Source of the DNA: Sphingobium sp. 66-54
GTDB lineage: Bacteria > Pseudomonadota > Alphaproteobacteria > Sphingomonadales > Sphingomonadaceae
Direction: 5' to 3'
Length of the DNA: 64,000 nucleotides
Assembly (NCBI GenBank): GCA_001899715.1
Contig: MKWI01000019.1
Location: forward strand, 6,446-70,445
Positions 3,779 through 57,367 of this stretch are shown here, piece after piece. Below the pieces are notes generated by a model that saw only the letters and a program-made list of their open reading frames with translations, made no database searches and was not told the origin of the DNA. The position numbers and the translations under genes are program-made. Every line of letters starts with the position of its first letter. Position 1 is the stretch's first letter.

Positions 3779-6139
3779 TCAGGTCGGCGGTATAGCCGCG
3801 TCGATCTCCCGCTTTATCCGCTCGATCTGCTCCGTCATGGCCGGCAGGCGCGGCGCTTCCTCATCGAGAATGGCAAGGAATGCCTCCCGCTTCCAGGCCC
3901 TTGGGCGGGTGGGATCGGACAAGGCATCGCGCGGCATGGTGGAGAGCAATATGTCGATCAGCCGATCAGCACCATGCAGGCGGCCCCAGAGATAGTCGTT
4001 CTCCCGATAGGCGCGGCTGAAGAAGGCGCCGAAGCTGTTGAACTCGATCCCGCGCAACGTCGCCGCCGCGCCGCCCGAGCGGATAGCCACGGCATCGTCG
4101 GGCGAGATGCGATCGACCTTGATCGGGTCATATTCGTCCAACCCTTCGCCCTGAAGCAGCGTCAGCGTCGCGACATCGTAGAAGGGAAAGCCCAGATAGG
4201 TCTTGAGCAAGGCGCGGCGTTCGTCCGGCTCGATGAGCATGACGGCGGCGGCAAAACGCGCGTCGACCATATCGTCGAGTGTCCGCAGGTCGCGCAGCCG
4301 CGTGATGGTTTCGAGCATGCCGGTCAAGTCGTTGAGTGCCCGGCGGGCCTGCTCGCGGGCCGTGGCATTGAACCAGCCGGCCTGCTGCCGCTCCGAATAG
4401 AGCGTGATCGCCTCATAGAGCATTTCCAGCATGGTCTCGCGGCCGGCGCGGCGGGGTTCGTCATCCTCGTCCGCGCGCGCGGCGGCGGAGAGGCGCCGGG
4501 TGAGGAAGCGCAGGCGGCGGACACGGAAGGCGATGTCGTGGCTACGGTAGAAGGCGATCAGTTCCTCGCTGGCGCCATCGGCGGTGCCGTGGCCGACGCG
4601 ATCTACGCCATTGGCGTGCAGGTGGGTGCGTAGAGCCCGCAGCAGTTTCTCCTTGGCCATGGGTGAAGTCTCGCCGGCGAGCGCGGCGATTAGCGTCGCT
4701 AAGTCTTCGACGATGCCGGAATATTTGAGATAGCCATAAGCCGGATAGGCATAGCCGGCGGCCTGCGCGGCTTTCTGCTGCATCCGACCCCGCCAGTGGG
4801 CAAGACGGCGCGCGGTGGGGCGGATCAGGAAGGGCGTGCGGCCGAGCGTGCGGTCGACCGTCCGCTCGATGTCCGGCCGCAGCGCTTCGAAGATATGCTG
4901 CATGCGGCGGATGCGCGTCGAGCGCTCGGTAATCAACTCCAGATTGTCACGGATCGGCTGCTCGCGCGGAATCTCGCTGACCGCGCCGAAGATGGTGCGG
5001 AAGAAGCCAGGGACCAGCCCCTCGCCGGTGATCCGGTGGCGCAGTGGCGAGGTGAGGCGGAAGCCTCCTACGCTGGGAGACGGCTCGATATAGACAAAGC
5101 GGCGGTCGACCGGGCGGCGCGCGGGCCGGTCGCGCAGCGCGTCGATTGCCTGAGCGAAGGGCGCATTGGCCAGCACCGATCCGTCGATGAGCACCGCGTC
5201 CTCCGCGTTGCCGGCCTCGCTATGCTGGGGCAGCACTCTGCGCAGGAAGGTATCACGCCCCGCCCACGGCCGCTTGCGCTCGGCAAGCACCGCGTCCAGC
5301 TCGCGCACGGTGAAGGGCGGGAAGGCGCCGGGGAAGCTGGCGGTTGCGCGCGCCGCGAAAACCAGTTCGCTCGGATCGGCAAGCTGACGCGGGCGGATGC
5401 CGCGCGCATGGAAGCTGATCGTCAGGCGATGCTCTGTCTCGGTGATCTCGGGCGGGCTGTTGAGGCGCAGCACCTCCTCATGGCCGGTGAAATCGGTGGC
5501 GGTCACGTAGAGATCGAGCGGGTGATTGTCCGGCAGCAGCGGCTCGCCCGGTTCGCCCCCGGCCATGGCGTCGAACGCGTCGAGAATCAGCCGGGAGAAG
5601 CCCTTGCCGCCGAAGGGTGGGGCGAACCAGCGGGCGCGCACGAAGTTGGAAAGCTTGCGGCGGACCTCCTCGCGCATCTCCGGCGCCACCGTGCGGTCGA
5701 CCGTATCGCCGCGCCGGCGCAGCAGCAGCCAGAGGAACGGCGCCGCCCAGAATTTGGTGAAGCGCGAGAGCGGGCGCGCGTCCGGGTCGAGCAATATGTC
5801 GGCATCGGCGCAGCGCAACCACAGGTCGGTCAGCGGGTCGAGCGACTGGCCGGTCTCGATGGCGTGGGCAAGGAACACGCCGTTGATGCCACCCGCGCTG
5901 GCGCCCGCGATGATATCCGGCAGCACACGCAGCTTGAGGTTGGCCTCAGCCCGGCAGGCGGCGAGGATCTTGCCGTAGACCGTATCGTCGGGGCCGGCCG
6001 GCTGCTCCCCATCGTGGCGGCAGAAGTCCCGGCTTGCGCGTGCAAGGCGCCATATTTCCTTGGTGACGCCGTGCATATAGACGGCGAGGCTCACGCCACC
6101 GTAGCAAACGAGCGCAAGCCTCAGTTCCTTCTCCCGCAT
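3779..6139 (-). CDS. Patatin-like protein (DUF3376-type C-terminus)
   Basis: YGGVSLAVY, GASAGGIN nucleophile elbow, DGSVL, NDYLWGRL. Confidence 0.88.
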   Translation of the reverse strand: MREKELRLALVCYGGVSLAVYMHGVTKEIWRLARASRDFCRHDGEQPAGPDDTVYGKILAACRAEANLKLRVLPDIIAGASAGGINGVFLAHAIETGQSLDPLTDLWLRCADADILLDPDARPLSRFTKFWAAPFLWLLLRRRGDTVDRTVAPEMREEVRRKLSNFVRARWFAPPFGGKGFSRLILDAFDAMAGGEPGEPLLPDNHPLDLYVTATDFTGHEEVLRLNSPPEITETEHRLTISFHARGIRPRQLADPSELVFAARATASFPGAFPPFTVRELDAVLAERKRPWAGRDTFLRRVLPQHSEAGNAEDAVLIDGSVLANAPFAQAIDALRDRPARRPVDRRFVYIEPSPSVGGFRLTSPLRHRITGEGLVPGFFRTIFGAVSEIPREQPIRDNLELITERSTRIRRMQHIFEALRPDIERTVDRTLGRTPFLIRPTARRLAHWRGRMQQKAAQAAGYAYPAYGYLKYSGIVEDLATLIAALAGETSPMAKEKLLRALRTHLHANGVDRVGHGTADGASEELIAFYRSHDIAFRVRRLRFLTRRLSAAARADEDDEPRRAGRETMLEMLYEAITLYSERQQAGWFNATAREQARRALNDLTGMLETITRLRDLRTLDDMVDARFAAAVMLIEPDERRALLKTYLGFPFYDVATLTLLQGEGLDEYDPIKVDRISPDDAVAIRSGGAAATLRGIEFNSFGAFFSRAYRENDYLWGRLHGADRLIDILLSTMPRDALSDPTRPRAWKREAFLAILDEEAPRLPAMTEQIERIKREIDAAIPPT

Positions 6140-6179
6140 CGCCTACAGATAGGCGGGGCGCGGGGCGCTTGTCGACCCG

Positions 6180-6890
6180 TCAGACGGGCAGAGTGAATTC
6201 GGCCCAGATCGGCAGGTGATCGGAGGCGCGGCGGGCGAGCGGCGTCATATGCACGCCGCAGTCCGCCAGCGTCAGCTCGCCGCGCCACATGATGCGGTCG
6301 AGCGAGGCGACCGGGCGGCGCGCGTGGAAGCTGCGGCCGCATGGCGCGATCTCGAAATGCCGGCCGAAGTCCGAGAGGCAACCGCGCCCGCTGCTCCATT
6401 CGTTGAGGTCGCCCATCAGGATCGTCCCGATCGCCGGATCATGTTCATGGCGATGCTCGACCTGACTGACCAGGGCGGCGGCCTGACGGCGGCGCCACAG
6501 GCCGGAAAGGTCGAGGTGCATGCCGACGATGCGCAGCCGCTGGCCCCGCACGTCCAGGCTGGCGGTGATCGCGCCGCGCGGCTCCAGGCAAGGGAGGTGA
6601 ACGACATCGCCCGCCGCCTCGTCAAGATGATCGCGGCGGACGAGCAGGGCGTTGCCGTGCCAGCCCATGCTCTCCGCGCGGGTGGGGATGGGGACGGCGC
6701 GATAGTCCGAATGCGTCTCCAGCAGCCGGTCGGGCAGCACGGCGTGGCGCGGGCCGAAGCGGCGGTCCGCTTCCTGCAAGGCGATGACGTCGGCATCCAG
6801 TTCGTTGAGCACGTCGATGATGCGTTCCGGCGCACGGCGCCGATCGGTGCCGATGGCCTTGCGGATATTGTAGGAGGCGACCTTGACCAT
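6180..6890 (-). CDS. Endonuclease/exonuclease/phosphatase family protein
   Basis: SYNI, LQE, GDLN, SDHLP motifs. Confidence 0.88.
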   Translation of the reverse strand: MVKVASYNIRKAIGTDRRRAPERIIDVLNELDADVIALQEADRRFGPRHAVLPDRLLETHSDYRAVPIPTRAESMGWHGNALLVRRDHLDEAAGDVVHLPCLEPRGAITASLDVRGQRLRIVGMHLDLSGLWRRRQAAALVSQVEHRHEHDPAIGTILMGDLNEWSSGRGCLSDFGRHFEIAPCGRSFHARRPVASLDRIMWRGELTLADCGVHMTPLARRASDHLPIWAEFTLPV

Positions 6891-9359: not shown

Positions 9360-11157
9360 CCCGGCGGCGGCTGTCTCCGCAACGGAGCTGCTGCTGAGCG
9401 AGGGCGTCATCATGCTGGGCGTTGCCCTGGTCCTCGTCGTTCTGTTCCGCCGGCTGGGGCTGGGCGCGACGCTCGGCTATCTTATTGCCGGCGCGCTGAT
9501 CGGTCCGCACGGCTTTGCCCTCGTCGGCGGCGGCGAGAGCAAGATGCACATCGCCGAGATCGGCATCGTCCTGCTGCTGTTCCTCGTCGGGCTGGAACTC
9601 AACCCGACGCGGCTGTGGCGGCTGCGGCACGATATCTTCGGCCTCGGTGTGTTGCAGGTGGCGCTGTGCGGCGTCGCGCTGGCGGCGGTCATCTATCTGA
9701 TGACCGGCTTCACGCTCGGCGCGGCCATCGCGCTGGGCCTGCCGCTCGCGCTCTCCTCCACCGCGCAGGTGCTGCCCGGCCTCAAGGAGAGCGGACGGAT
9801 CAACTCACCTTTTGGTGAGAAGGCCTTCGCCATCCTGTTGTTGCAAGACCTCGCCATCGTGCCGCTCATCACCATCATCGCCGCGCTCTCGCGCGCACCG
9901 GCCGATCCCCACGCGCCGCCGGGCTGGATGCTCGGCCTCTACACGGTCGGCGCTATTATCGGGCTGGTACTGGCCGGGCGGTTCATCCTGCAACCGCTGC
10001 TGCGGCTGATCGGGCGGCTGGGCGAACGCGAACTGTTCGTCGCCATCGGCCTGTTCGCGGTGCTGGCCTCGGCCGCGCTGATGCAGGCGCTCAACCTGTC
10101 CACCGCGCTCGGCGCCTTCATCGCCGGCGTGATGCTGGCGGATTCGCCGTATCGGCACGAGATCGAATCGGACGTGGAGCCGTTCCGCACCATCCTGCTC
10201 GGTCTGTTCTTCGTGGCGGTCGGCATGGTGCTGGACCTTGGCGTCATCGCGCGTCAGCCTTTCTTCATCATCGGCATGGCGTTGGCGCTGGTGGCGGTGA
10301 AGGTGCTGCTCATCACGCCCATCGCGATGCTGTTCGGCGTGCCGCGCTGGCAGGCTCTCGGCCTCGGCCTGCTGCTCAGTCAGGGCGGTGAACTCGCCTT
10401 CGTGCTGTTTGATCAGGCGCGCGGCGCCCTGCTTATCGCACCCGAGGCAGCCAGCATGTTCAGCGCGGTGGTAACGCTGTCGATGATGTCCACGCCATTC
10501 CTGCTGATGATCGCGCGCCGGCTCGAATTTTCCGACGAGGAAGGCGATGGGGATGGACTGGACGGCCCGGAAAAGGCGCCGCGCGGCACCGCCATCGTCA
10601 TCGGCTACGGCCGGTTCGGCCAGACGGTCGCGCAGATGCTGATGGGGCAGGGTTGCGGCGTGACGCTGATCGACCGCAAGCCGGCACAGATCGAGCTGTC
10701 CAGCCAGCTCGATATCAAAGTCTATTATGGTGACGGTACTCGCCTCGACCTGCTGCGCCGCGCCGGCGCGGAGGAGGCGACGCTGCTGATCTTCTGCCAT
10801 GACGACCGTCATTTCGGCCCCGGCACTCTCGCACCAATCCTGGAAGCCTTCCCGCAGGCTGCCGTGCTGGTGCGGACGTTCGACCGGAGCCACCTGATCG
10901 CCGTGCATGATCTGCCGCTGGCCGGCACGGTGCGCGAAGTGTTCGAGTCGGCCGTGGCGATGGGCCGGGCAGCGCTCACCCGCCTGGGGCTCGACGAGAC
11001 TCAGGTAAACGAGATCGAACGGCAGTATCGCGCCAATGACCGCAAGCGGCTCGACGTGCAGATCGCCTCGGGGCTGATGGCCGCCAAGGAATTGCTGTTC
11101 CGCCCCGGACGGACGATGGTACTGCCGGAAAAGCAGGTGTTGGGAGACGACGCATGA
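9352..11157 (+). CDS. KefB/KefC-type cation:proton antiporter with TrkA-N domain
   Basis: Multi-TM CPA2 core (GLELN, LSSTA, LLQD, LSQGGE); GYGRFGQ Rossmann domain. Confidence 0.9.
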   Translation: MADPAAAVSATELLLSEGVIMLGVALVLVVLFRRLGLGATLGYLIAGALIGPHGFALVGGGESKMHIAEIGIVLLLFLVGLELNPTRLWRLRHDIFGLGVLQVALCGVALAAVIYLMTGFTLGAAIALGLPLALSSTAQVLPGLKESGRINSPFGEKAFAILLLQDLAIVPLITIIAALSRAPADPHAPPGWMLGLYTVGAIIGLVLAGRFILQPLLRLIGRLGERELFVAIGLFAVLASAALMQALNLSTALGAFIAGVMLADSPYRHEIESDVEPFRTILLGLFFVAVGMVLDLGVIARQPFFIIGMALALVAVKVLLITPIAMLFGVPRWQALGLGLLLSQGGELAFVLFDQARGALLIAPEAASMFSAVVTLSMMSTPFLLMIARRLEFSDEEGDGDGLDGPEKAPRGTAIVIGYGRFGQTVAQMLMGQGCGVTLIDRKPAQIELSSQLDIKVYYGDGTRLDLLRRAGAEEATLLIFCHDDRHFGPGTLAPILEAFPQAAVLVRTFDRSHLIAVHDLPLAGTVREVFESAVAMGRAALTRLGLDETQVNEIERQYRANDRKRLDVQIASGLMAAKELLFRPGRTMVLPEKQVLGDDA

Positions 11158-32400: not shown

Positions 32401-32763
32401 CTAGGCCGGTGGATCGTCGCCGCCATCCCGACACAGGTCGAGCAGCGACATCTGGCCATATTCATGGCCGGGGGGCTTGGTCTCCTCGATGTGCGGCAGG
32501 CGAAATTCAGGTGAGATGCCAGACGGCGAAATGACCGCGACGATGGAGAGCATCGACTTCCACGTCATCGAGCAGGCGATGTTGCCGCAGTAATAATAAA
32601 GCTGGCGGACCGTGGGCGTGAGTTCTTCGGACGTGCGCACGAAGGAGCGCGATCCGCAGACCGGGCATTTCATCATGGGCATGCGCCCCCGGTCGCGAAA
32701 TGCGCGCGATGCCGTCATGGGGGCCCAAACGGTGCTGTGGTCAAACTGAACGGCGCTGTTCAT
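32401..32763 (-). CDS. ogr: Ogr/Delta-like zinc-finger late activator
   Basis: CPVCGS.S.VRTS..L..YYYCGNIACS.TW..I..ISPSG; start uncertain. Confidence 0.88.
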   Translation of the reverse strand: MNSAVQFDHSTVWAPMTASRAFRDRGRMPMMKCPVCGSRSFVRTSEELTPTVRQLYYYCGNIACSMTWKSMLSIVAVISPSGISPEFRLPHIEETKPPGHEYGQMSLLDLCRDGGDDPPA

Positions 32764-35442: not shown

Positions 35443-35691
35443 ATGGATATCGAGTTCGATCCCGCGAAAGACGCTCTCAACATCGACAAGCATGGCGTTT
35501 CGCTCGCCCGCTTCGTGGATATGGACGTGGCGTCGATCGTCGAGGATGATCGGTTCGATGAACCCCGCCTGCGCATCTACGGGCAGCTTGACGGCATCTG
35601 GCACTGCGCCGCCGTCACGATCCGGGCCACGGCATATCGTGTCATCAGCCTGCGCAGGGCACACGCAAAGGAGATCAGGCGCCATGTCTGA
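35443..35691 (+). CDS. brnT: BrnT family toxin
   Basis: EFDPAKDALNIDKHGVSL, DEPR..G, RVISLRRA..KE. Confidence 0.92.
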   Translation: MDIEFDPAKDALNIDKHGVSLARFVDMDVASIVEDDRFDEPRLRIYGQLDGIWHCAAVTIRATAYRVISLRRAHAKEIRRHV

Positions 35692-41779: not shown

Positions 41780-42145
41780 TTACGTCCTTTGCTGACGGGC
41801 GCCCGCGAGCGCGATGGTGAGGTTGATGGGCTGGCGACCAGGCAGGTCTGTGCGCGTGCCCTCGATAATGAGCGAAAGGCCGCCGTCCGCGCTGCCGCTG
41901 CCCACGGCCACGCGGTCCAGCTTCACGCGGGGTTCCCATCGCGCGATGGCGCCGGCGCTGGCGGCCGAGATGAGCTGGCGTGTGGCGGCATTGAGGGGCG
42001 CGTCGACCAGCTCGAACAACCGCGATCCATAAGCCCGGCGCATGACGCGCGAGCCGATCGGCGTCGTGAGAATGTCGGCGATCGACTGCGCGATATGCGC
42101 CTCGCCCTCGATGCGCTTGCCGGTGGCCCGCTCCATGCCGCTCAT
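41780..42145 (-). CDS. W: Baseplate wedge gpW (gp25-like)
   Basis: HI.QSI.DILTTPIGSRVMRR.YGS, WEPR. Confidence 0.92.
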   Translation of the reverse strand: MSGMERATGKRIEGEAHIAQSIADILTTPIGSRVMRRAYGSRLFELVDAPLNAATRQLISAASAGAIARWEPRVKLDRVAVGSGSADGGLSLIIEGTRTDLPGRQPINLTIALAGARQQRT

Positions 42146-42705
42146 ACCGGCGCCCCCGACTGGCCGCTGCCGGGCTGCACCTGCCCGTGCTTGTGGCCCT
42201 TGAGGCTTTTGCCGCCACCGACCACGTCCGTGTCGGCGGTGAAGGTGCCGGTCATGGTGCCGTCGCCATTCACCGCGATGTTGCCAGTGATGGTCACATC
42301 GCCGGTGATGGTCACGCCTTCCGGCGCGGTGATGGTCGCCTTGCCGCCCGCCAGCGTGATCGCCAGCTCATGGCCCTCGGGGTCATAGTCGATGGTGGTG
42401 CCGTCCGGCATCAGCAGCCGTGCGCGGCCGTCATCGGCCGGGGCGGGGAAGGCGGTGGAGTAGAGGCCGCGCAGGACGCAGCCGTGGGCAATATCGCCCT
42501 CCGCGCAGAGCAGCAGCACCTGCTCGCCCTCGCTCGGTGGCACCCAGCAGCGGAAGCCGCCGGCCAGCTCCAGCCATGGCACGGGAGGCGATGTGACATC
42601 GCCGAGCGTCACGGTCACGCGCGCGGCGGCGAGGTCCACCGTCTCGACCGTGCCGAGGCGGATCAGATCGCCGATGAGGCCGGAGAGTTCATCCTGTTGC
42701 GCCAT
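42142..42705 (-). CDS. V: Baseplate spike gpV
   Basis: LIRLGTV, PS.GEQV, YDP..H.L, SL.GHKH; start 42705 preferred, 42717 possible. Confidence 0.92.
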   Translation of the reverse strand: MAQQDELSGLIGDLIRLGTVETVDLAAARVTVTLGDVTSPPVPWLELAGGFRCWVPPSEGEQVLLLCAEGDIAHGCVLRGLYSTAFPAPADDGRARLLMPDGTTIDYDPEGHELAITLAGGKATITAPEGVTITGDVTITGNIAVNGDGTMTGTFTADTDVVGGGKSLKGHKHGQVQPGSGQSGAPV

Positions 42706-42751
42706 GCGGTCCGTCATCCGCGACCGGACATGGGCGCGCTACAGCGCGGCA

Positions 42752-42772
42752 TTGTGAGAGCGCCTATCACAA
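42752..42772. promoter_or_regulatory. Late-activator (Ogr-type) box 1
   Basis: TTGTGA-GAGCGCCTA-TCACAA, identical at 46358 (inverted) and 57347. Confidence 0.85.
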
Positions 42773-42979: not shown

Positions 42980-43380
42980 GGGACGATTCCTTCGGTTGGA
43001 GGGACAGGCCAGACGGCGGCGGACGCATCGCCACCGCAGGTTTCGGGCAGGGCGCGCAGCGCGGTGCGGTAATCGGCCCACGCCGCGCGCTCGGCTTCGC
43101 CGATCGGGAAATCGGCGATCTGGGTGCGGTCGCTCGCGGCGAGCAGCCGGTTGCGGCGCCGACGCAGCAGCATCATGGCGATGGCGGGCGGCGGGGCCGG
43201 TGGGGCGACGGCAACGGGGCGGCCATCGGCATCCGGCACGATGGTCCGCCCCTCGCTTTGCAACGCCATCAACTCGGCGTGGCGCGCGTCGGAGACGGCC
43301 AGCGCATCCGGCGGGATCGCGGCATTGAGATCGACATGGTAGAAGGCCCGCGTCGACGGGCTATAGCGAAAGCCGGTCAT
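42976..43380 (-). CDS. Tail fibre assembly chaperone
   Basis: YSPSTRAFY, LRRRRNRLLAASD..D.P..W..YR.ALR.LP..WP..P. Confidence 0.85.
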   Translation of the reverse strand: MTGFRYSPSTRAFYHVDLNAAIPPDALAVSDARHAELMALQSEGRTIVPDADGRPVAVAPPAPPPAIAMMLLRRRRNRLLAASDRTQIADFPIGEAERAAWADYRTALRALPETCGGDASAAVWPVPPTEGIVP

Positions 43381-44876
43381 TTACCCTTCGCCTCCCAGCT
43401 ATAGGTGCACATGAAATCGGCGCCGTTGATGATCGTGAAGCCGGCCGTGGTAACGCTGCCGGTGAGCATCCCGCCATATTCCTCGGCGGTGGTGATATTA
43501 ATCATCTGCGCCGAGCACTGGACGTGAGGGGCGGCGTCGAATGAGAAGGGAAACGCGACATAGACGGACTGGTTGGCGGCGATCGTGACCTGTGACCAGC
43601 AGCGCTTGTAGCCATCCGCATAGACGCGGCGGCCGGTCGTGGCGCCTATGAAGTCGGTTACGCGATCGTAGGCGCTGCCGTGATAGCCATCCAGCAGATC
43701 GGCATCGAAGCCCGACCCCGAGCCGTCCACGGTGAGGAGCTTGGTCTTGACATCCGCCGCCGTGTAGGCCGCGCTGTCGAGCGGTGTGTAGCCGAGGCGG
43801 GCGGGGATGTTCGCGTAATAGCTGCCGTGCTGGCCATCGAGCATGTCCGCATCGAGACCCGAGCCCGACCCGTCATTGGCGGAATCCCAGACCTGGTTGC
43901 CTTGCCGCCAAATGCTTCCCGACCAATCCGCTCGCCCGTCCGCCCAATATTTCCAATAACCATATTGCGCCGTTTCGTTGGCGTTTAAGACCTGAAAATA
44001 GGCGAGGCCGGTGCCTGGATTTGCCGCCAGCCTAATCCCTCCGGTTGTGCCGTCCGCCGGCGTGCGCGCCAGCACAATGCCGAAACGCACGTCCTGCCCG
44101 TCAGTCCACCCCTTCCCATCGAGCAGATCGGCATCGAGGCCCGAGCCGGACCCGTCCACGGTGAGGAGCTTGGTCTTGATGTCCGCTGCCGTATAGCTGG
44201 CGGCATTAAGCGGCGTGAAGCCGAGGCGGGCGGGGATGTTCGCGTAGTAGCTGCCGTGCTGGCCATCGAGCAGGTCCGCATCGAGGCCCGAGCCCGACCC
44301 GTCATTACTCGCGCGCCACACGTCCGCGAGTATGCCGCCGAACCACGCGAGCACGCTGGTCTTGAGCTTTCTGGGTGTGACGATCCGCGCGTCATCCTCG
44401 CCGGCGTCGCTCTCCGCCTGGGTGGCGATCTCCGCCACGCCTTTGACCGTCTCCGTGGCGGGAGGATTGATGAAATCGGTATCGCCGAACGTGATGGCAG
44501 CAGCGTCGATTTCGGTAAAGGCGATGTCATTGGCGAGCAGAAAGATCGTGGCCGCTGTCTTTTCCACGATCGGTTCGGCCTGCCCGTAGAGCGCGAACAG
44601 CGTGCCGTCCTGCAGATAGAGGCCGAACGCGCGAACCGTATAGGCATCCGCGCTCGCATCCTGCGCGACCATGTGGATGGTATCGTCCGCCACCACCGCG
44701 CCGCCGACCTGGTCGATCCGCTTGAACTCGCCGGCGAGCGCGGTCAGCGCCGGGTCGGCGGCCACGGCGGTCGCGGTGAGGCCGAGCTGGGCGATCGTCA
44801 CCGGCGCCGTGCCGGTGTTCTGCGCGTTGACGATGGCGGCGCGGCCGGCGTTGGTGACGGTGAGTTGCAGGGGCAT
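43377..44876 (-). CDS. H: Tail fibre protein H
   Basis: P2-H-type N-terminus (TNAGRAA, EFKR, PPATET.KGV), GSGLDAD.LDG repeats, gp53-like C-terminus. Confidence 0.88.
   Translation of the reverse strand: MPLQLTVTNAGRAAIVNAQNTGTAPVTIAQLGLTATAVAADPALTALAGEFKRIDQVGGAVVADDTIHMVAQDASADAYTVRAFGLYLQDGTLFALYGQAEPIVEKTAATIFLLANDIAFTEIDAAAITFGDTDFINPPATETVKGVAEIATQAESDAGEDDARIVTPRKLKTSVLAWFGGILADVWRASNDGSGSGLDADLLDGQHGSYYANIPARLGFTPLNAASYTAADIKTKLLTVDGSGSGLDADLLDGKGWTDGQDVRFGIVLARTPADGTTGGIRLAANPGTGLAYFQVLNANETAQYGYWKYWADGRADWSGSIWRQGNQVWDSANDGSGSGLDADMLDGQHGSYYANIPARLGYTPLDSAAYTAADVKTKLLTVDGSGSGFDADLLDGYHGSAYDRVTDFIGATTGRRVYADGYKRCWSQVTIAANQSVYVAFPFSFDAAPHVQCSAQMINITTAEEYGGMLTGSVTTAGFTIINGADFMCTYSWEAKGK
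43687..44306. repeat. Two ~191-bp direct repeats in the tail fibre gene
   Basis: 43687-43877 and 44116-44306, offset 429 bp (143 codons). Confidence 0.85.
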
Positions 44877-46357: not shown

Positions 46358-46378
46358 TTGTGATAGGCGCTCTCACAA
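46358..46378. promoter_or_regulatory. Late-activator box 2 (bidirectional: J and the plus-strand operon)
   Basis: Reverse complement of box 1; 46351-46380 is identical over 30 bp to the reverse complement of 57345-57374. Confidence 0.85.
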
Positions 46379-46454
46379 TGCGAGCCGCTGGAAAGCGGCC
46401 CGCGCCGGCGGACGATGGCCCCGATCAAGCATCCGTTCGGGGAGTGTCCGGCTC

Positions 46455-46769
46455 ATGGCAGTCGTCTACATCACGCGCTACAGCATCAACGCTCGCAACT
46501 GGGCTCGCCTCACCAGCGGGCAGGCCATTGCGGTGCTCGGCGGCCAGATCGGCGATACCGTCACGGTCGAACCGGGCGCCGAGCCGACCGAGCCGGATCC
46601 GGCCGCGCGCGACAGCCTTTACCGGATCCGCGTCGACGGCGGGGCGTGCCGCATGCGCATCGGCAAGGAGGCGCTGGCGGACGCGCAGAGCGAACCGTTG
46701 TTCGACGGCGATGATGAGCTGCGCTTCCTGCTGCCGGGCGAGCGCATCTCTCTGGTCGCGGCGAACTGA
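46455..46769 (+). CDS. 104-aa predicted beta-rich protein, possible virion decoration base
   Basis: GGGGAG RBS; coupled (TGATG) to the large downstream gene. Confidence 0.7.
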   Translation: MAVVYITRYSINARNWARLTSGQAIAVLGGQIGDTVTVEPGAEPTEPDPAARDSLYRIRVDGGACRMRIGKEALADAQSEPLFDGDDELRFLLPGERISLVAAN

Positions 46770-49700
46770 TGCTGGGGTCTCCAACACGCGGGCGCCGCGC
46801 TCGCCCGCCGCGTGCCCGCGCTCTGCGTGCCAGCGTGCCGACCGCCACGGGTACGATCTGGCACGTGCCGACGCTCGGGCTGCTGGCGCCGGTCACATGG
46901 GCCAGGGCCAGTGGCCACGCCAATCTCTCGCTCACCGCCGCGACCGGCGCGATCGCCGCCGCGACGGCGCTGGCGGCGGGTGAGAACCAGGCGATTGCCG
47001 GCACCGCCACCGGCGCGGACGGGGTGGTGATTCCGTGGGCCGCGACACTGGTCGGCGCGGTTGCCCGGCCAGCCGCGCCGACGATCGGGCTGGAGCCGGG
47101 AGATGGGCAGATCGTGGTCACGGTGACGGACGGCGCCGATGGTGGCGCGCAGATCACCCACCACCGCCTCTATCTCGGTACCGCGAGCGGCGATCTGGCG
47201 GTGCTGGCCACCGTGGCGGCGGCCGATACCCACATCATCGACGATCTGACCAACGACGCGGAAGTGTTCGTGCAGGCCAGTTCGATCAACAGCGCGGGCG
47301 AGGGGCCCCGCTCCGAAGAAAAGAGCGTCACGCCCCGCGCGCCGATCCTGCTCGGCCTGCCGACGCTCACCCCGGCGACGATCGCCGAGGGCGCGGCACC
47401 TGGCACGCCGGTCGGGGCGCTCGGCAATATTCTGACCGGGGCGGACGTCACTCTTTCCAGCGATGCCGGTGGCCGCTTCGCGCTGACCGGCGATGGCAGG
47501 ATCGTCGCCGGGCTGACCGCCACCGATTACGAGACCGCGCCGGACCACGCTTACGAGATCGGGATCACCCAGACGCTGGAGACGGCCGCCAATTCGCCAC
47601 GCACCGATCTGCTCGCCATCGCGGTGACAGATGTCGAGGAAGCCCCCGCCGAGGCCCCCTCCATCGCCTTCGCGGATGGCATCTTCACCAACACCAACGG
47701 CGATCTAGGCCAGTGGTATCGCGATGACACAGCAATCTCTGGCGAGACCGGGGCTACCTACACTTACGTCGAGGCAACCGACGCGGGTCGCGCGATCTCG
47801 CAATATGTTGACGGCGTTCGGTCGATCAACGTCTTCGTCCAGCAAGCAGCAGGGCTGCCGATTTACAGCGATGATTTCAGCTACCCGACCAATGACAAGC
47901 TGGTCTCGCATGGTTGGACCGGCCTACCGGTAGGCGGCGACACCCAGTTCAATAAATATATCGCAAACGCTTCTGGGAAGGCATCCTGCGCGTCGCTCTC
48001 GACCGTTGGCGGCGACCGGCCGATAGTCATCCGCGACACGGGCAGCGTCACGCACTTTATCGAATGGGACGGCGGCAACACCGCTTGGCGTGTCGTTCTC
48101 GCGGGCGTTGATAGCAAAAACTACATGATGATAGCTGGAGGGACGTATCCGGGCGTCTATCAGGTCGTTGGCGGCGCCACCACGAACTTCCAGGGTATCA
48201 GCAACGCCCTGAAAATCGCCAACGCGGACGTGGCAGGCAACCGCTTCCGCGCTGAAATTCTCTCGAACGGCTCATTCCGCATATTGTTTAAAGCGGTCGG
48301 AGATCCCGAGTTCAAGCCCTACTCTCTGGTCAATCCAGCGGGGGCTGACTCTGCTCAGACGGACGTGAGTTACCCAATCAACGCCGCCTTGCTGGCGGGC
48401 ACATTCATTGGTTTAGGCGGCAGTACGTCAGGAACGGCCACATGGGACAATGTGGCGTGGGGTTCGATGCTCCGGCCGATCATCATCAACAGTGTCTCAA
48501 TCGCCGAGGATGGCTCGATCCAGCTTACTGGCACGGCGACCCGCTTCACGGCGGCGCTTGCGCTCATTCAGGATGCGGACACGGGCGAACTTATCGCCGA
48601 TTGGACGCCGGTCGATGGCGCGGCTCCCAACTACACAGTTGTGGCCCCGCTTCCGGTTGAGGCGCAGGGCCGGAATATCCGTGCATGGCTGACGGACACA
48701 GTTCACCCGGAAGATGCCGCATCCGTTACGATTTCGGTTCCATATCACGACGAAATCCGTCCGCTTGTGTTCGGCATGAACAGCAATGGAGTTGTTAGTT
48801 ATAGTGCCCACGATATTGTAAGAGACCGCGGACGTGTTATCTCTTGGAGATATAAAGACAGTGTATCAGGCCGTCACAACTATGTCCCAGACAGCGAAAA
48901 GAATGAAGATGGGTGGCCTATAGTCCATCCTTCTGAAACAAGCGTAACTGTTGCTCAAGGGCAGCCTACCACCTTTGATAGTTTTGCGGCTGTCGTTTGG
49001 GAAGGCAGCAATTGGCATATCGGCACTAGACACGGTGTTTGGGATTGCAGTCTGAATGCTCCTGCAACCATATCAAAAGATAGCGGCACTGGTGTTACCA
49101 TCAATGTTCTTTCTAATACCTCGTTTACTCTTGATGCAGGGTCGGATGAAGGACAGTCAATCAACTATTCGGTCCTGTTAAAGAACCCGACCGTGCCGCC
49201 GGAAGGCTTCCAGCTTTCTGTTATGCAGGCAGATGACCCGCATCCTGAAAAGATGTTCACAGACAGCGCCGCCACAATCTGGCACGCCAATACCTTCGGC
49301 GGCGAACTCTGGTGGCGCGACATGAAGGACAGCGGCGCAGAGGATGCGCCGGCATCCGGCAGGCTATTCCGCCGCCTTATGGCCACCCCCGAAGCGGCAG
49401 CCGCTCGCTACACCGAGCTTGGTCAGCACACATTCCACAACTTTGCCTGGAGCGACGTGGCCTTCCGCTTCAACGAAGTGGTCAAGCCGTGGCTCGATAA
49501 TTGGAAGCTGCTCGCGAACCCGGCCGCAAAACTCAACGTCGAGGTTAGCAACGAGGACTGGAACACGGCATACGCCGCCAAGATGGAGGGCATGATGACC
49601 CATGCCAGCCAGATGCGGATGCTGGAGGGCGTAACGATCCCGGCGGGTGTCACAGTCACCAACGAGCGGGCCAATGTGAACCCGTCAACCGGTGTCACTG

Positions 49701-50605
49701 CGCGCGCGTTTGAGCCGGGCGAGTGGTTCTACTGCCGAACCGTTGATAGCTTGGACTCTTCAAAGAACTATCAAAACGTTCTCATCGAAGTCATCGCATC
49801 GAGCACAGTAGCCGCAGGTGCAATCGTGGACGTGCGCGACAATGCCGATTTTGCTGTCAAAGCGCTCCATTCCGGTTTGATGCAAGGTGCACGTCGATTG
49901 CAGGCCAGTCTCCAGAAGCAGGTGGGTCTATACGGCAAGACCAACGTCGGCGCGCGCTTCTCCAGCACGCTTGGCGCATGGAAGGGCGACAGCGTCTCCA
50001 CCATCGTGGACGCATTGCTCTATGGCGATAACTGGCAAGGCATCGACTGGTATTCGCCCAGCTTTTACGCAGGTAGCGGCGACAAATACGGCACGTTGCC
50101 GTGGCATCTTGACCATACAAGCGATCTTAGCTCGTTTAAGAATGGTTTCTTCGCTGAGTGGCGCTCAACGACCGATGAGATGATCTCGAAGCTTGTAACG
50201 CTCAAGCATGGCGTGCTGAATGCGCTTGTCGCTGCCGGTGTCCCGCCTGCGCAATGTCCGCGCATGGGGCAACTTTACGAGGGTGGCAACCACAACATCA
50301 TTGTCGATCCGGGCGGCGGTAGCGCTATGTCGCAGACGGATCGGGATGGCGTGTTGGCTGCGCTTGAAGCCTGTCTCATCGACGCACGCGCAGGCGATGA
50401 GGTCACTTACGAACTTGCGCAACTTCGCACAAAGATTGGCGGCGTCTGCGTCTGGTTCAGCGATGTGGAGCGTCCATTTTGGAACAGTAACCAGCTCCAG
50501 TTCTTCGGCATCCGCAAATATGCGACTGATGGCGCGTGGAACAACGGCGGGGCGGATGAACAGCGCTATGCCGCTGCCGTCGCGGCGTTCGCGGAGGCCG
50601 GATGA
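46769..50605 (+). CDS. 1278-aa FN3/cadherin/Ig-like plus putative clan-GH-A glycoside hydrolase protein
   Basis: FN3 (~aa99-190, ..SINSAGEGPRSE..VTP), cadherin-like (DYET..TDVEE), QWYRD..ISG.TG.TY, C-terminal GMN..D.WP..EVSNEDWN..YEGGNH. Confidence 0.7.
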   Translation: MLGSPTRGRRARPPRARALRASVPTATGTIWHVPTLGLLAPVTWARASGHANLSLTAATGAIAAATALAAGENQAIAGTATGADGVVIPWAATLVGAVARPAAPTIGLEPGDGQIVVTVTDGADGGAQITHHRLYLGTASGDLAVLATVAAADTHIIDDLTNDAEVFVQASSINSAGEGPRSEEKSVTPRAPILLGLPTLTPATIAEGAAPGTPVGALGNILTGADVTLSSDAGGRFALTGDGRIVAGLTATDYETAPDHAYEIGITQTLETAANSPRTDLLAIAVTDVEEAPAEAPSIAFADGIFTNTNGDLGQWYRDDTAISGETGATYTYVEATDAGRAISQYVDGVRSINVFVQQAAGLPIYSDDFSYPTNDKLVSHGWTGLPVGGDTQFNKYIANASGKASCASLSTVGGDRPIVIRDTGSVTHFIEWDGGNTAWRVVLAGVDSKNYMMIAGGTYPGVYQVVGGATTNFQGISNALKIANADVAGNRFRAEILSNGSFRILFKAVGDPEFKPYSLVNPAGADSAQTDVSYPINAALLAGTFIGLGGSTSGTATWDNVAWGSMLRPIIINSVSIAEDGSIQLTGTATRFTAALALIQDADTGELIADWTPVDGAAPNYTVVAPLPVEAQGRNIRAWLTDTVHPEDAASVTISVPYHDEIRPLVFGMNSNGVVSYSAHDIVRDRGRVISWRYKDSVSGRHNYVPDSEKNEDGWPIVHPSETSVTVAQGQPTTFDSFAAVVWEGSNWHIGTRHGVWDCSLNAPATISKDSGTGVTINVLSNTSFTLDAGSDEGQSINYSVLLKNPTVPPEGFQLSVMQADDPHPEKMFTDSAATIWHANTFGGELWWRDMKDSGAEDAPASGRLFRRLMATPEAAAARYTELGQHTFHNFAWSDVAFRFNEVVKPWLDNWKLLANPAAKLNVEVSNEDWNTAYAAKMEGMMTHASQMRMLEGVTIPAGVTVTNERANVNPSTGVTARAFEPGEWFYCRTVDSLDSSKNYQNVLIEVIASSTVAAGAIVDVRDNADFAVKALHSGLMQGARRLQASLQKQVGLYGKTNVGARFSSTLGAWKGDSVSTIVDALLYGDNWQGIDWYSPSFYAGSGDKYGTLPWHLDHTSDLSSFKNGFFAEWRSTTDEMISKLVTLKHGVLNALVAAGVPPAQCPRMGQLYEGGNHNIIVDPGGGSAMSQTDRDGVLAALEACLIDARAGDEVTYELAQLRTKIGGVCVWFSDVERPFWNSNQLQFFGIRKYATDGAWNNGGADEQRYAAAVAAFAEAG

Positions 50606-50874
50606 TGACCGGCGAACGCGAACTTGGGGCCAAGCTGGATCGCGCGCTGGGCCGGCTCGATGCGATCATCGCGACCCAGACAGAGCAGAGCGAGAAGTTC
50701 GACCATCTCTCGGAACGGGTGGCGAAGGTTGAGCAAGGCGTCTGCGACACGCGCGACGTGGTGGCCGCCTGGACGGCAGCCAAGACCTCGATGCGCTTCA
50801 TCAAATGGGTTGTTGGGCTCGCCGGCGCGGTTGTCGGCCTGTTCTTCGCTCTCAAAGGAGGGCTCGGCAGATGA
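50602..50874 (+). CDS. Probable holin (coiled coil plus C-terminal TM)
   Basis: Directly upstream of the lysozyme; single C-terminal TM. Confidence 0.5.
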   Translation: MMTGERELGAKLDRALGRLDAIIATQTEQSEKFDHLSERVAKVEQGVCDTRDVVAAWTAAKTSMRFIKWVVGLAGAVVGLFFALKGGLGR

Positions 50875-51350
50875 GCAACCTCAAACTCGCAGTCACGGCC
50901 GTGGGCGGTGCCGGCATCACCGCTGCGCTGCTCATCGCCACGCCGGTCATCCAGAAATGGGAGGGCACCCGGCTCGACCCATACAAGGATATCGTCGGGA
51001 TCAACACGGTCTGCACCGGTGAGACGCGGGTCCAAATGCGGCGATACACGCCGGGCGAATGCGCCGCGATGCTCCGCCGAACGCTGGAACTGGACTATGC
51101 GCCGGCGGTGCTCAAGGCCGTGCCGGCGCTCAAGAACCGGCCCAACCAGTTCGCCGCCGCCATCTCGCTCACTTACAATATCGGTGAGGTCGCGTTTGCC
51201 CGCTCGACCGTGGCGCGGCGCTTCAATACCGGCGACTGGCGCGGGGGTTGCGACGCCTTCCGCATGTGGGTCAATGCCGGCGGGCGACGCATTCAGGGCT
51301 TGGTCAATCGGAGGGAGGACGAGCGCAAGCTCTGCCTCACGGGGTTGTGA
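50871..51350 (+). CDS. GH24 lysozyme with SAR-like N-terminus
   Basis: E-x8-D-x5-T triad (WEG..YKD..INT), YNIG, GL.NRR..E; Gly/Ala-rich N-terminal helix. Confidence 0.93.
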   Translation: MSNLKLAVTAVGGAGITAALLIATPVIQKWEGTRLDPYKDIVGINTVCTGETRVQMRRYTPGECAAMLRRTLELDYAPAVLKAVPALKNRPNQFAAAISLTYNIGEVAFARSTVARRFNTGDWRGGCDAFRMWVNAGGRRIQGLVNRREDERKLCLTGL

Positions 51351-51352
51351 CC

Positions 51353-51856
51353 ATGCTGCTCACTCGCTTCGCGCCGCATCTCGGCGTAGCCGCGATTCTC
51401 GTCATCGCCGCCCTATCGACCGGCCTCGCGCTCACTCGTGGCAAATTGGTGGACGCGCGCCAGGACCTGCGCGTTGAGAAGGCACTGCACGAGACCGATA
51501 CCGCCAACTTCAAGGCCGCGCAGGCGAAGGCCAACGCCGACTGGCAGGCCGAAATGGCCCGCGTCCAAACCGTCAATCGGAGACTGAACGATGAAGCCGA
51601 TCGCAGGGCCGATGCTGGCCGCGCTGACTATGCTGCTCGCGTCATGCGGCTCCCCGCCGCCACAGCCGATCCCGGTCTATCCAGCGACCGTGAGATGCCC
51701 GGCCCCGGAAGCGCCCCGAGCCCTGACGGACCCGGTGGAGATTCCATCCTTCTTGCGCGCGCCGATGCCCTGATCTGCGCGACCAACACCGCCCGGTTGC
51801 AGGCGGCTCACGAGTGGGCGCTAGTCTTGGCGGATCAGACGAAGGCTACCCGGTAG
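51353..51856 (+). CDS. Rz: Rz-like i-spanin
   Basis: N-terminal TM, coiled coil, C-terminal Cys; after the endolysin. Confidence 0.8.
   Translation: MLLTRFAPHLGVAAILVIAALSTGLALTRGKLVDARQDLRVEKALHETDTANFKAAQAKANADWQAEMARVQTVNRRLNDEADRRADAGRADYAARVMRLPAATADPGLSSDREMPGPGSAPSPDGPGGDSILLARADALICATNTARLQAAHEWALVLADQTKATR
51591..51773 (+). CDS. Rz1: Rz1-like o-spanin embedded in Rz
   Basis: Lipobox LASC, Pro-rich mature part, +1 frame within Rz. Confidence 0.8.
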   Translation: MKPIAGPMLAALTMLLASCGSPPPQPIPVYPATVRCPAPEAPRALTDPVEIPSFLRAPMP

Positions 51857-52350
51857 CGACGACGCCGCAGCACCGCGCCTGCCAGCGCGAAACCGCCGAT
51901 CATCATGGCCCATGTTGCCGGCTCTGGCAGAGGGTAGAGCTTGCCGAACGAAACCGATGGATTGGTGTCGGATCGAATGAAATCATTATCAGGGGTCAGG
52001 CGAATCTTATTGAATGTAAGACTAACAAATTCAAAATCCTCGCCATCGCCGTAGCTATAAAAGCCGTATCCTGATCCTGTGTACCAATTACCATCTGAAT
52101 GTGACGATTGGCTATCGTCAAATGTAAAGTTAGCTTCCCCGGAATACCATCCACCACTACCATAGCTAAGCCTAAATACGCCAATATCGAAGCTAGAGAT
52201 GCACGATGTTTGAGTGCAATAGCCATAAAGCAGCGCGGATGATGTGCCTCTAGAAGACAGAGCGCTGCCACTTATCTCTATAAATAATTCTGCCTGCGCA
52301 GGCATCGCCGCTACGCCGCCCAACAAGGCGGCGATCAGTAGTTTTCGCAT
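51835..52350 (-). CDS. PEPxxWA-CTERM exported protein (moron)
   Basis: Signal peptide (..PAQA), C-terminal LPEPATWAMMIGGF..G..LRRRR; low GC; GGAGG RBS. Confidence 0.92.
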   Translation of the reverse strand: MRKLLIAALLGGVAAMPAQAELFIEISGSALSSRGTSSALLYGYCTQTSCISSFDIGVFRLSYGSGGWYSGEANFTFDDSQSSHSDGNWYTGSGYGFYSYGDGEDFEFVSLTFNKIRLTPDNDFIRSDTNPSVSFGKLYPLPEPATWAMMIGGFALAGAVLRRRRYRVAFV

Positions 52351-52439
52351 AGTCACCTCCCACAGTGATGAGGAGGTCATGACACCCTGCCGGCGAGTCG
52401 GTCAAATCTGGTTAACGTCCCGTTATGGGATCAGCGCCG

Positions 52440-57346: not shown

Positions 57347-57367
57347 TTGTGAGAGCGCCTATCACAA
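57347..57367. promoter_or_regulatory. Late-activator box 3 (bidirectional: O and P)
   Basis: TTGTGA-N9-TCACAA between the divergent O and P genes. Confidence 0.87.

Follow-up and report, generated by a model that had tools for sequence, protein, structure and literature searches.

A predicted GH-A-like polysaccharide hydrolase encoded with the lysis genes of a P2-like Sphingobium prophage

What does a large protein with a predicted carbohydrate-cleaving domain do next to the lysis genes of a P2-like prophage? The question is raised by a stretch of 64,000 nucleotides from Sphingobium sp. 66-54 (contig MKWI01000019.1, positions 6,446 to 70,445 of the forward strand), referred to here as the window, within which lies a complete P2-like prophage. 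Between its genes S and J it carries a gene for a protein of 104 residues (46455–46769, + strand) and a gene for a modular protein of 1,278 residues, a putative late polysaccharide hydrolase or depolymerase (46769–50605, + strand). To our knowledge the canonical P2 gene set includes no depolymerase, and the enzyme gene is an unusual accessory for a P2-like phage. We hold it highly probable that the large protein is a glycoside hydrolase (GH) resembling those of clan GH-A, acting on polysaccharide and made late. We also lean towards the fuller account, in which the two genes form a late accessory depolymerase module that is displayed on the virion, with a surplus freed at lysis.

The C-terminal domain and its family

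An original prediction, made from the letters of the window and its open reading frames (ORFs) without database searches, had named the large protein a putative glycoside hydrolase from two short motifs, S-N-E-D-W-N and Y-E-G-G, and had pointed to a fold comparison of the C-terminal region as the check. AlphaFold2, supplied with an alignment of the family, modelled the C-terminal 624 residues (655–1278; 48731–50602, + strand) with high confidence (mean predicted local distance difference test score (pLDDT) of 89.5, predicted template modelling score of 0.90) as a (β/α)8 barrel with two inserted β subdomains, and assignment of secondary structure in the model by DSSP gave eight alternating strand–helix units. 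When the model was compared with the PDB by Foldseek, the top 50 matches were all glycoside hydrolases or carbohydrate-binding modules (CBMs), mostly from families GH26, GH10, GH1, GH53, GH51 and GH5; the nearest solved folds are those of clan GH-A, with match scores that are weak.

The two glutamates picked out by the original prediction lie where it had placed them, with the codon of E929 starting at 49553 and that of E1171 at 50279. Both proved to be invariant in the family and to sit at barrel strands 4 and 7. The family alignment comprises 17 proteins, the window protein and 16 relatives, which are about 17–39% identical, and its only invariant columns are R850, E929, Y1170 and E1171, with N928, W931, N932, K1146 and H1175 conserved in at least 90% of the sequences. 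From the alignment and the DSSP assignment, the invariant Arg850 (49316–49318, + strand) is at the end of predicted strand 2, Asn928-Glu929, the candidate acid/base (49550–49555, + strand), comes directly after strand 4 (model residues 268–272), and Tyr1170-Glu1171, the candidate nucleophile (50276–50281, + strand), is in strand 7 (model residues 514–520); Y1100 is on the sixth barrel strand. As modelled, this layout of residues is the '4/7' arrangement of clan GH-A, and the predicted domain is probably a retaining β-glycanase.

Two subdomains interrupt the barrel. The first, a seven-stranded β-sandwich that follows the first barrel strand (residues ~738–820; 48980–49228, + strand; DSSP strands at 84–166 of the model), is a candidate carbohydrate-binding insert that resembles CBM-type domains weakly in fold. 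No block of the family alignment is less conserved, and the minimum in G+C content, 0.47, falls on this stretch. The second is a β subdomain of ~80 residues between strands 4 and 5 (~954–1032).

Several observations count against a clan GH-A assignment. The Foldseek scores are weak in absolute terms, with a best E value of 4.6e-4 and a TM score of at most 0.42, and no glycoside hydrolase model of Pfam or NCBIfam matched the catalytic domain of the window protein or of its 16 relatives. The 242 residues between E929 and E1171 are much more than in typical GH-A enzymes, a spacing that we ascribe to the inserted subdomain.

Searches of other libraries gave a similar picture. PDB sequences yielded nothing with the 1,278-residue protein or its halves, and nothing below an E value of 0.7 with the family profile; the full-length protein had no match in PHROGs, and the model had no convincing match in the BFVD viral fold library. 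By contrast with these nulls, an exhaustive HMMER search with residues 661–1278 against 1.84 billion representative proteins returned 18 clusters only, nearly all of them proteins of ~700–1,370 residues that carry the domain at their C terminus, and two of them short fragments. The lack of any match in a curated library, together with so few clusters, points to an uncurated GH-A-like family, and the predicted domain is probably a GH-A-like barrel that stands outside any curated family. Word-indexed searches returned no protein with the catalytic domain alone, not even the window protein itself, and a single protein with the family alignment; given the 18 clusters found by the exhaustive search, we read these results as limits of the index and not as absence.

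Modules, mosaic origin and the small partner

The remainder of the large protein is a string of modules whose base composition changes abruptly. G+C content had been said to drop after ~47700, which had suggested a swapped-in effector, and we located the step at residue ~295, with a G+C content of 0.72 for residues 1–295 and 0.574 for residues 296–1278 and a minimum of 0.473 at residues 701–800. Homology along the protein is mosaic as well and, with the composition step, backs the proposed exchange: judged by sequence, residues 296–1278 appear to have been swapped in, with residues 1–295 native to the prophage lineage.

Three modules make up the high-G+C part. The N-terminal β-sandwich (residues ~11–100; 46769–47068, + strand), a candidate docking module, is modelled with seven strands at pLDDT 74–96, and residues 1–100 are 43–57% identical to the N termini of Sphingobium prophage proteins and of P0005, a protein encoded in a Mu-like prophage. 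An FN3-like module follows (residues ~101–193; 47069–47347, + strand), which is 48% identical to P0005 and also matches the fn3-annotated proteins P0004 and P0007 (41–48% identity to fn3 carriers). Its best PDB match is a neogenin FN3 domain, at a non-significant score; its fold matches, from a low-confidence model, are tandem FN3 and cadherin pairs; and residues 100–191 have a sub-threshold match in NCBIfam. The FN3 module was not found in the Sphingobium homologue of the large protein. The third module is cadherin-like (residues 199–294; 47363–47650, + strand): by BLAST, residues 199–291 are 41–46% identical to eight repeats of the 'protocadherin' protein of Brevundimonas phage Gurke (E value 2e-14), which carries PF00028 in its precomputed annotation, and the repeat also matches proteins of Caulobacter and Brevundimonas jumbo phages. 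The FN3 and cadherin modules read from the sequence by the original prediction were upheld only in part, by similarity to homologues but not by the Pfam models PF00041 and PF00028, neither of which matched at E ≤ 10; indeed, Pfam searches at that threshold with the 1,278-residue protein, whole and in three pieces, reported nothing. By transitive similarity both labels seem reasonable.

The lower-G+C, non-catalytic part (47654–48730, + strand), delimited by the composition step and by homology to P0002, comprises a putative Ig-like module (residues 296–350), a poorly modelled domain of ~200 residues and a β-sandwich (residues 568–654). Residues 210–687 are 42% identical to P0002, a protein of an unrelated prophage, and pLDDT values in this part are good only for residues 300–350 and 580–660. 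The poorly modelled domain is possibly concanavalin/LamG-like; relatives carry Laminin_G_3 or a GH54-type ArabFuran-catal domain at the equivalent place. Overall, the structure model of residues 1–660 has a mean pLDDT of 49.8 and is good only in three short stretches, and from this poor model the fold matches lend weak support to tandem β-sandwiches. No solved-structure chain matched residues 1–660 significantly. The protein had been described as having no signal peptide, and none is evident by hydropathy (no dedicated predictor was run), with residues 17–23 placed by the model in a β strand of the sandwich.

The small gene and the large ORF are coupled exactly at the coordinates first given for them, through a one-base overlap in TGATG at 46769. 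The 104-residue protein is β-rich and a candidate adaptor or chaperone. Its gene has an in-frame codon-position G+C content of 0.68/0.57/0.83 (0.83 at third positions), a GGGAG 10 nt ahead of the ATG, and a homologue with 44% identity at the same position in Sphingobium prophages, where partner and N-terminal domain of the large protein are kept together. The protein matched nothing in Pfam, PHROGs, NCBIfam, the PDB or phage records, and it is unrelated to the small proteins encoded upstream of the large genes in two other loci, L004 and L016. Both genes are real: the small one by its codon-position G+C and positional homologue, the large one by its confident fold and by homologues for every part. 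The antisense ORFs across the large gene are the usual artefacts of high G+C content. We also considered an antisense ORF of 120 residues (46425–46787) as the baseplate gene gpW and rejected it, as it has no GPW_gp25 match and codon-position G+C favours the + strand; gpW proper, with a GPW_gp25 match, is at 41780–42145.

Probable late expression and the prophage setting

The gene pair opens a plus-strand block that fills the gap between S and J and continues with holin-like, endolysin and Rz-like genes, an arrangement absent in such form from P2. The stop of the 1,278-residue gene overlaps the start of the next in an ATGA at 50602. That gene (50602–50874, + strand) encodes a 90-residue holin-like protein with one C-terminal transmembrane segment (hydropathy peak at residues 66–84), whose PHROG matches are all of unassigned function, and its own stop overlaps the endolysin start in an ATGA at 50871. 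The endolysin (50871–51350, + strand) belongs to the Phage_lysozyme family, GH24 (Pfam E value 1.8e-33; PHROG endolysin E value 1.7e-50), and has a Gly/Ala-rich N-terminal segment of the signal-anchor-release type. After a gap of 2 nt (51351–51352) comes a putative Rz-like i-spanin with an N-terminal transmembrane segment (51353–51856, + strand), within which an Rz1-like lipoprotein ORF with the lipobox LLASC is embedded at 51591–51773; the Rz-like protein has no family match in Pfam or NCBIfam, and we infer the Rz/Rz1 identity from position and features.

Upstream, the intergenic region from which J and the 104-residue gene diverge contains a 19-bp dyad, TGTGATAGGCGCTCTCACA, at 46359–46377, a candidate site for the late-promoter activator. 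Exact copies of the perfect dyad recur at 42753–42771, before V (the baseplate spike), and at 57348–57366, between O and P. The O-side copy and the one before the 104-residue gene have 31 nt in common, the distance from dyad centre to ATG is 87 bp for both the 104-residue gene and O, and J and P start ~56 bp on the other side of their dyads, such that the O/P and J/104-residue regions are parallel in geometry. In two further P2-like prophage lineages these three places are likewise occupied by dyads, which have the same arms and their own centres; kept arms with changed centres would suggest phage-specific activator-site pairs. In P2, Ogr-dependent late promoters lie at these places. In P2 the activator site has the form TGT-N12-ACA. 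An exact dyad of that type was looked for at the operon and is not present; the prophage dyad has the form TGT-N13-ACA. An Ogr/Delta-type zinc-finger late activator is encoded at 32401–32682 on the − strand (Pfam PF04606, E value 5.9e-15).

The shared dyads, the Ogr gene and the overlapping stops and starts together make late expression with the lysis genes likely, probably as one unit, which agrees, by sequence logic, with the co-transcription that the original prediction had proposed. A scan for sigma-70 promoters and terminators remained at chance level. The window sequence occurs only in DNA runs from bioreactor and wastewater metagenomes, and in no RNA runs. The three identical dyads offer a testable late-promoter map for this group of prophages.

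The large protein had also been placed outside the canonical P2 set, and the gene order bears this out. Family searches assigned O (scaffold), N (capsid), M, L, R and S to 57270–52440 (− strand); J, I, fibre H, the fibre chaperone, V, W, sheath, tube, E, tape measure, U and D occupy 46312–35932 (− strand), and terminase P and the portal gene run from 57368 (+ strand). Every canonical function (O, N, M, L, R, S, J, I, H, chaperone, V, W, FI, FII, E, T, U, D, P and portal) is accounted for by other ORFs of the window, and the large protein, as well as lacking a PHROG match, bears no similarity to fibre H.

Several further features of the prophage deserve mention in their own right. V and W (41780–42717, − strand) stand between the fibre chaperone and the sheath gene, as they also do in prophages L008 and L016; in P2 they stand between S and J. 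Fibre H (43377–44876, − strand) has internal repeats in its translation, among them several copies of the motif DGSGSGLDADLLDG and two of a longer unit that ends in GSYYANIPARLG(F/Y)TPL. A BrnT-type ribonuclease toxin gene (35443–35691, + strand; Pfam E value 3.7e-14) borders the tail operon just past gene D. A gene with a low G+C content of 0.51, which converges on the lysis operon, encodes a protein with a PEPxxWA-CTERM/PEP-CTERM sorting signal (51835–52380, − strand; NCBIfam E value 5e-13), and Sphingobium prophages have a similar one between their large gene and holin gene (L008 13537–14076). PEP-CTERM proteins are exosortase substrates tied to exopolysaccharide (EPS) and floc formation, and this moron may share in the same surface-polysaccharide story as the enzyme.

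Relatives, site of action and known systems

The closest syntenic prophages are found in Sphingobium. In four viral contigs and several Sphingobium genomes, J is followed by a divergent gene for a 104-residue protein and one for a 1,190-residue protein, as in the window, and then by an opposite-strand PEP-CTERM gene, a holin gene and a GH108 endolysin gene. Scans of viral contigs returned only these four Sphingobium-type prophages, scans of representative genomes returned no relatives, and scans of metagenomes returned none, or only one known locus and a short contig. In L016, a third P2-like prophage, the block runs holin-like gene, M15 endolysin, spanin-like gene, a gene for a 223-residue protein, the enzyme gene and an Acyl_transf_3 acyltransferase gene. 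The last, at L016 13313–14413 directly after the enzyme gene, is likely a moron for O-acetylation of a surface polysaccharide, as in phages that use polysaccharide as a receptor. Among the Sphingobium-type loci, the stretch between the lysis genes and S at L008 15799–19683 encodes a 469-residue protein, an AAA_30/UvrD_C_2 helicase-like protein and a protein kinase, which may be defence cargo, and different large genes occupy the matching spot in L014.

Further afield, the catalytic domain recurs behind different N termini. The gene for P0002 lies directly ahead of a 57-residue gene and a Phage_lysozyme gene in its own prophage, and on podophage-like contigs relatives come after a collar gene and a β-helix tailspike or pectin-lyase-like gene and before the lysis genes. 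In three of the podophage-like relatives the first 52 residues are ~75% identical and the remainder ~31%, which by analogy would be the usual signature of a virion anchor. In locus L005 a 194-residue ORF (9420–10004) with this conserved N terminus and an FN3 module precedes P0008 (10001–13009); in L009 and L015 the same parts belong to a single long protein. Because the tail of the 194-residue ORF looks out of frame and the parts are fused in L009 and L015, the L005 gene is probably split by a frameshift, be it a sequencing error or real. In L006, another locus on short contigs, the family member P0025 (1,043 residues) is directly followed by a 711-residue protein with weak BNR/sialidase-type repeats (4046–6181), so that two glycan-active proteins may be encoded in tandem there.

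The shared N terminus in turn occurs without the catalytic domain. P0005 (L004 1211–3829), of 872 residues, has the same N-terminal sandwich and FN3 module (48% identity) on a body made of a SASA-type esterase and Laminin_G_3, and its gene is preceded by an unrelated gene for 92 residues. This sharing suggests that myoviruses of different types use the N-terminal module to carry different carbohydrate-active enzymes.

We propose that an Ogr-type activator would switch on the promoter beside the dyad at 46359–46377, giving a single transcript that spans the 104-residue gene, the 1,278-residue gene, the holin, the endolysin and the spanins. As it has no export signal, the large protein could leave the cell only on the virion or at lysis. 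It would then work as a retaining β-glycanase, with Glu929 as acid/base and Glu1171 as nucleophile, and would cut a host-surface polysaccharide, be it EPS, capsule or O-antigen, held by the inserted β-sandwich and the LamG-like domain. Residues 1–295, with their β-sandwich, FN3-like and cadherin-like modules, would provide a stalk and docking end, and the N-terminal sandwich, aided by the 104-residue partner, would dock the enzyme on the virion as an auxiliary depolymerase, with surplus free enzyme released at lysis. A host-surface target is suggested by the enzyme end itself, by the exchangeable bodies on a shared N terminus and by the position of the podophage relatives on the tailspike side; a sphingan as the substrate is a guess from the Sphingobium relatives alone.

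Virion attachment, for which the argument is one of analogy, is evenly poised in our judgement and is the weakest step of this account. In each of the three P2-like lineages the gene accompanies the lysis cassette and not the tail-fibre genes; the L016 enzyme lacks the N-terminal 295 residues and has no 104-residue partner; the P0005 gene sits between the portal and Mu F genes, in the head module of its Mu-like prophage; and a comparison of the N terminus of the large protein with fibre H of the same prophage revealed no similarity. All of this weighs against docking on the virion, as does an apparently monomeric, beads-on-a-string build that is unlike the known trimeric fibres, and it makes a free enzyme released at lysis a serious rival.

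On that alternative the protein would be an accessory of lysis that never enters the virion and that digests capsule, EPS or floc matrix, frees the progeny and strips neighbouring cells. Mycobacteriophage LysB, a lysis component for a further envelope layer, follows a comparable logic. The large gene is translationally coupled to the holin-like gene, and the lysis cassette is within one or two genes of it in the window and in L001, L005, L008, L015 and L016, a linkage that persists though the endolysins are of different types (GH24, GH108, M15 and GH19). In L016 the gene is downstream of the lysis genes in the same block, in P2-like prophages it stands apart from the fibre genes H and G, and without a signal peptide release requires lysis. 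Adjacency is nonetheless weak evidence, given that a lysis cassette often just follows the last tail gene, and in L008 an opposite-strand gene separates the large gene from the lysis genes. The anchor-like N termini conserved beside tailspikes in the podophage relatives speak for attachment, and a free enzyme leaves the conserved N-terminal module and the small partner hard to account for. Phage TP-84 offers an argument in each direction: its GH18-like depolymerase is encoded directly before holin and endolysin and has soluble forms, but it is present in virions as well (PMC10131341). On balance we regard a purely free enzyme as possible though rather doubtful.

Related to it is a more speculative view, to which we give a lower standing still, in which P2-like prophages of Sphingomonadaceae and of other floc or biofilm bacteria added a matrix-degrading step to lysis in the form of a free or loosely tethered GH-A-like glycanase, a 'public-good' depolymerase. 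To the knowledge of the authors who described TspA of the gene transfer agent (GTA) RcGTA, no soluble 'public-good' depolymerase is phage-encoded (bioRxiv 10.64898/2026.07.19.739414). Such an enzyme would break down the exopolysaccharide that surrounds the lysed cell and strip its neighbours, and the PEP-CTERM and acyltransferase morons would belong to the same interplay with surface polysaccharide.

Decoration of the capsid is unlikely. The 104-residue protein would then be a base and the Ig-like modules a stalk that holds the enzyme out from the head, as with T4 Hoc or RcGTA head spikes; the original prediction had already drawn the analogy with GTA head spikes. A string of Ig-like, FN3 and cadherin modules is, from what is generally known of Hoc, typical of head decoration proteins, P0005 with its homologous N terminus is encoded between portal and Mu F head genes, and the operon shares its dyad and spacing with the capsid–scaffold operon. 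However, the podophage relatives lie among tail genes, the putative base has no homology to the small proteins encoded upstream in L004 and L016, and the GTA head-spike analogy found no sequence support in a solved-structure search with the 104-residue protein and residues 1–660, in which neither gave a significant match (the GTA and decoration-protein content of the library being unchecked). Least probable of all is that the protein is no polysaccharide hydrolase but a binding module, an enzyme for peptidoglycan or another substrate, or a catalytically different barrel resembling GH-A: the structural matches are weak and include GH31, GH13 and PgaB-type barrels, no GH sequence model matches and the gene adjoins peptidoglycan-degrading genes, but the invariant residues are the GH-A catalytic set at strands 2, 4 and 7, a domain for binding only would not keep both glutamates across proteins as divergent as these, and the prophage already has an endolysin.

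Modular phage polysaccharide depolymerases are already known, and TP-84 is a precedent for a hydrolase gene beside lysis genes. What is new here is a catalytic family with very few members and with neither a curated model in Pfam, NCBIfam or PHROGs nor a solved relative; its predicted build, a single-chain barrel on an Ig-like stalk; and its stable position within the lysis operon, next to a small conserved partner, in a P2-like prophage lineage. Phage depolymerases attract interest both as agents against biofilms and as factors that set host range. If activity is confirmed, the enzyme would probably define a new glycoside hydrolase family whose substrate comes from the EPS or lipopolysaccharide of environmental alphaproteobacteria. 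A gene kept with the lysis cassette across three prophage lineages would, moreover, allow a clean test of the idea that free matrix-degrading enzymes are released by phages at lysis.

Among known enzymes, those of clan GH-A (GH26 mannanases and lichenases, GH10, GH53, GH5 and GH1) share with the window protein the predicted (β/α)8 barrel, the Asn-Glu after strand 4, the Glu in strand 7, the conserved Arg on strand 2 and the Tyr on strand 6. The window protein differs from them in having no sequence match and TM scores of 0.42 or less, and in a barrel that is interrupted near its start by a sandwich and, between strands 4 and 5, by a β subdomain.

Ig-like decoration proteins such as Hoc, which decorates the head of phage T4, likewise consist of tandem modules, of the Ig-like, FN3 and cadherin-like kinds, on a late phage protein; in the window protein, unlike these, the modules carry a large enzyme domain and are accompanied by no recognizable capsid-binding domain. 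RcGTA TspA offers a parallel from another alphaproteobacterial element: a matrix-degrading enzyme, co-regulated with the particle genes, that has a β-sandwich N terminus and is only loosely tied to the particle. It is described as a detachable, calcium-dependent tailspike and, unlike our model, a trimer whose active site lies between subunits (bioRxiv 10.64898/2026.07.19.739414). We detected no sequence similarity between it and the window protein, the sequences of TspA and of GTA spikes not having been compared directly with ours.

TP84_26 of Geobacillus phage TP-84, a protein of 112 kDa with a C-terminal glycoside hydrolase domain, is encoded directly before holin and endolysin and is reported both as a soluble enzyme and in virions (PMC10131341). 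It resembles the window protein in its size, its C-terminal hydrolase and its place just before the holin and endolysin genes, and differs in that it is akin to GH18 rather than GH-A and comes from a siphovirus of a Gram-positive thermophile; we found no sequence relationship between the two.

The last comparison is with the depolymerases of tailspikes and tail fibres, of which P22 gp9, Sf6, K1F and the Klebsiella phage depolymerases are named examples. The characterized phage depolymerases known to us are almost all trimeric β-helix tailspikes. The window protein has no β-helix and no sign of trimerization: the models show its catalytic part as one chain in a compact barrel and its N-terminal part as separate β-sandwiches, giving a predicted barrel on an Ig-like stalk that is encoded in a lysis operon. 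With the tailspikes and fibres it shares its character as a late protein, an N terminus specific to the lineage and an exchangeable, carbohydrate-active C terminus.

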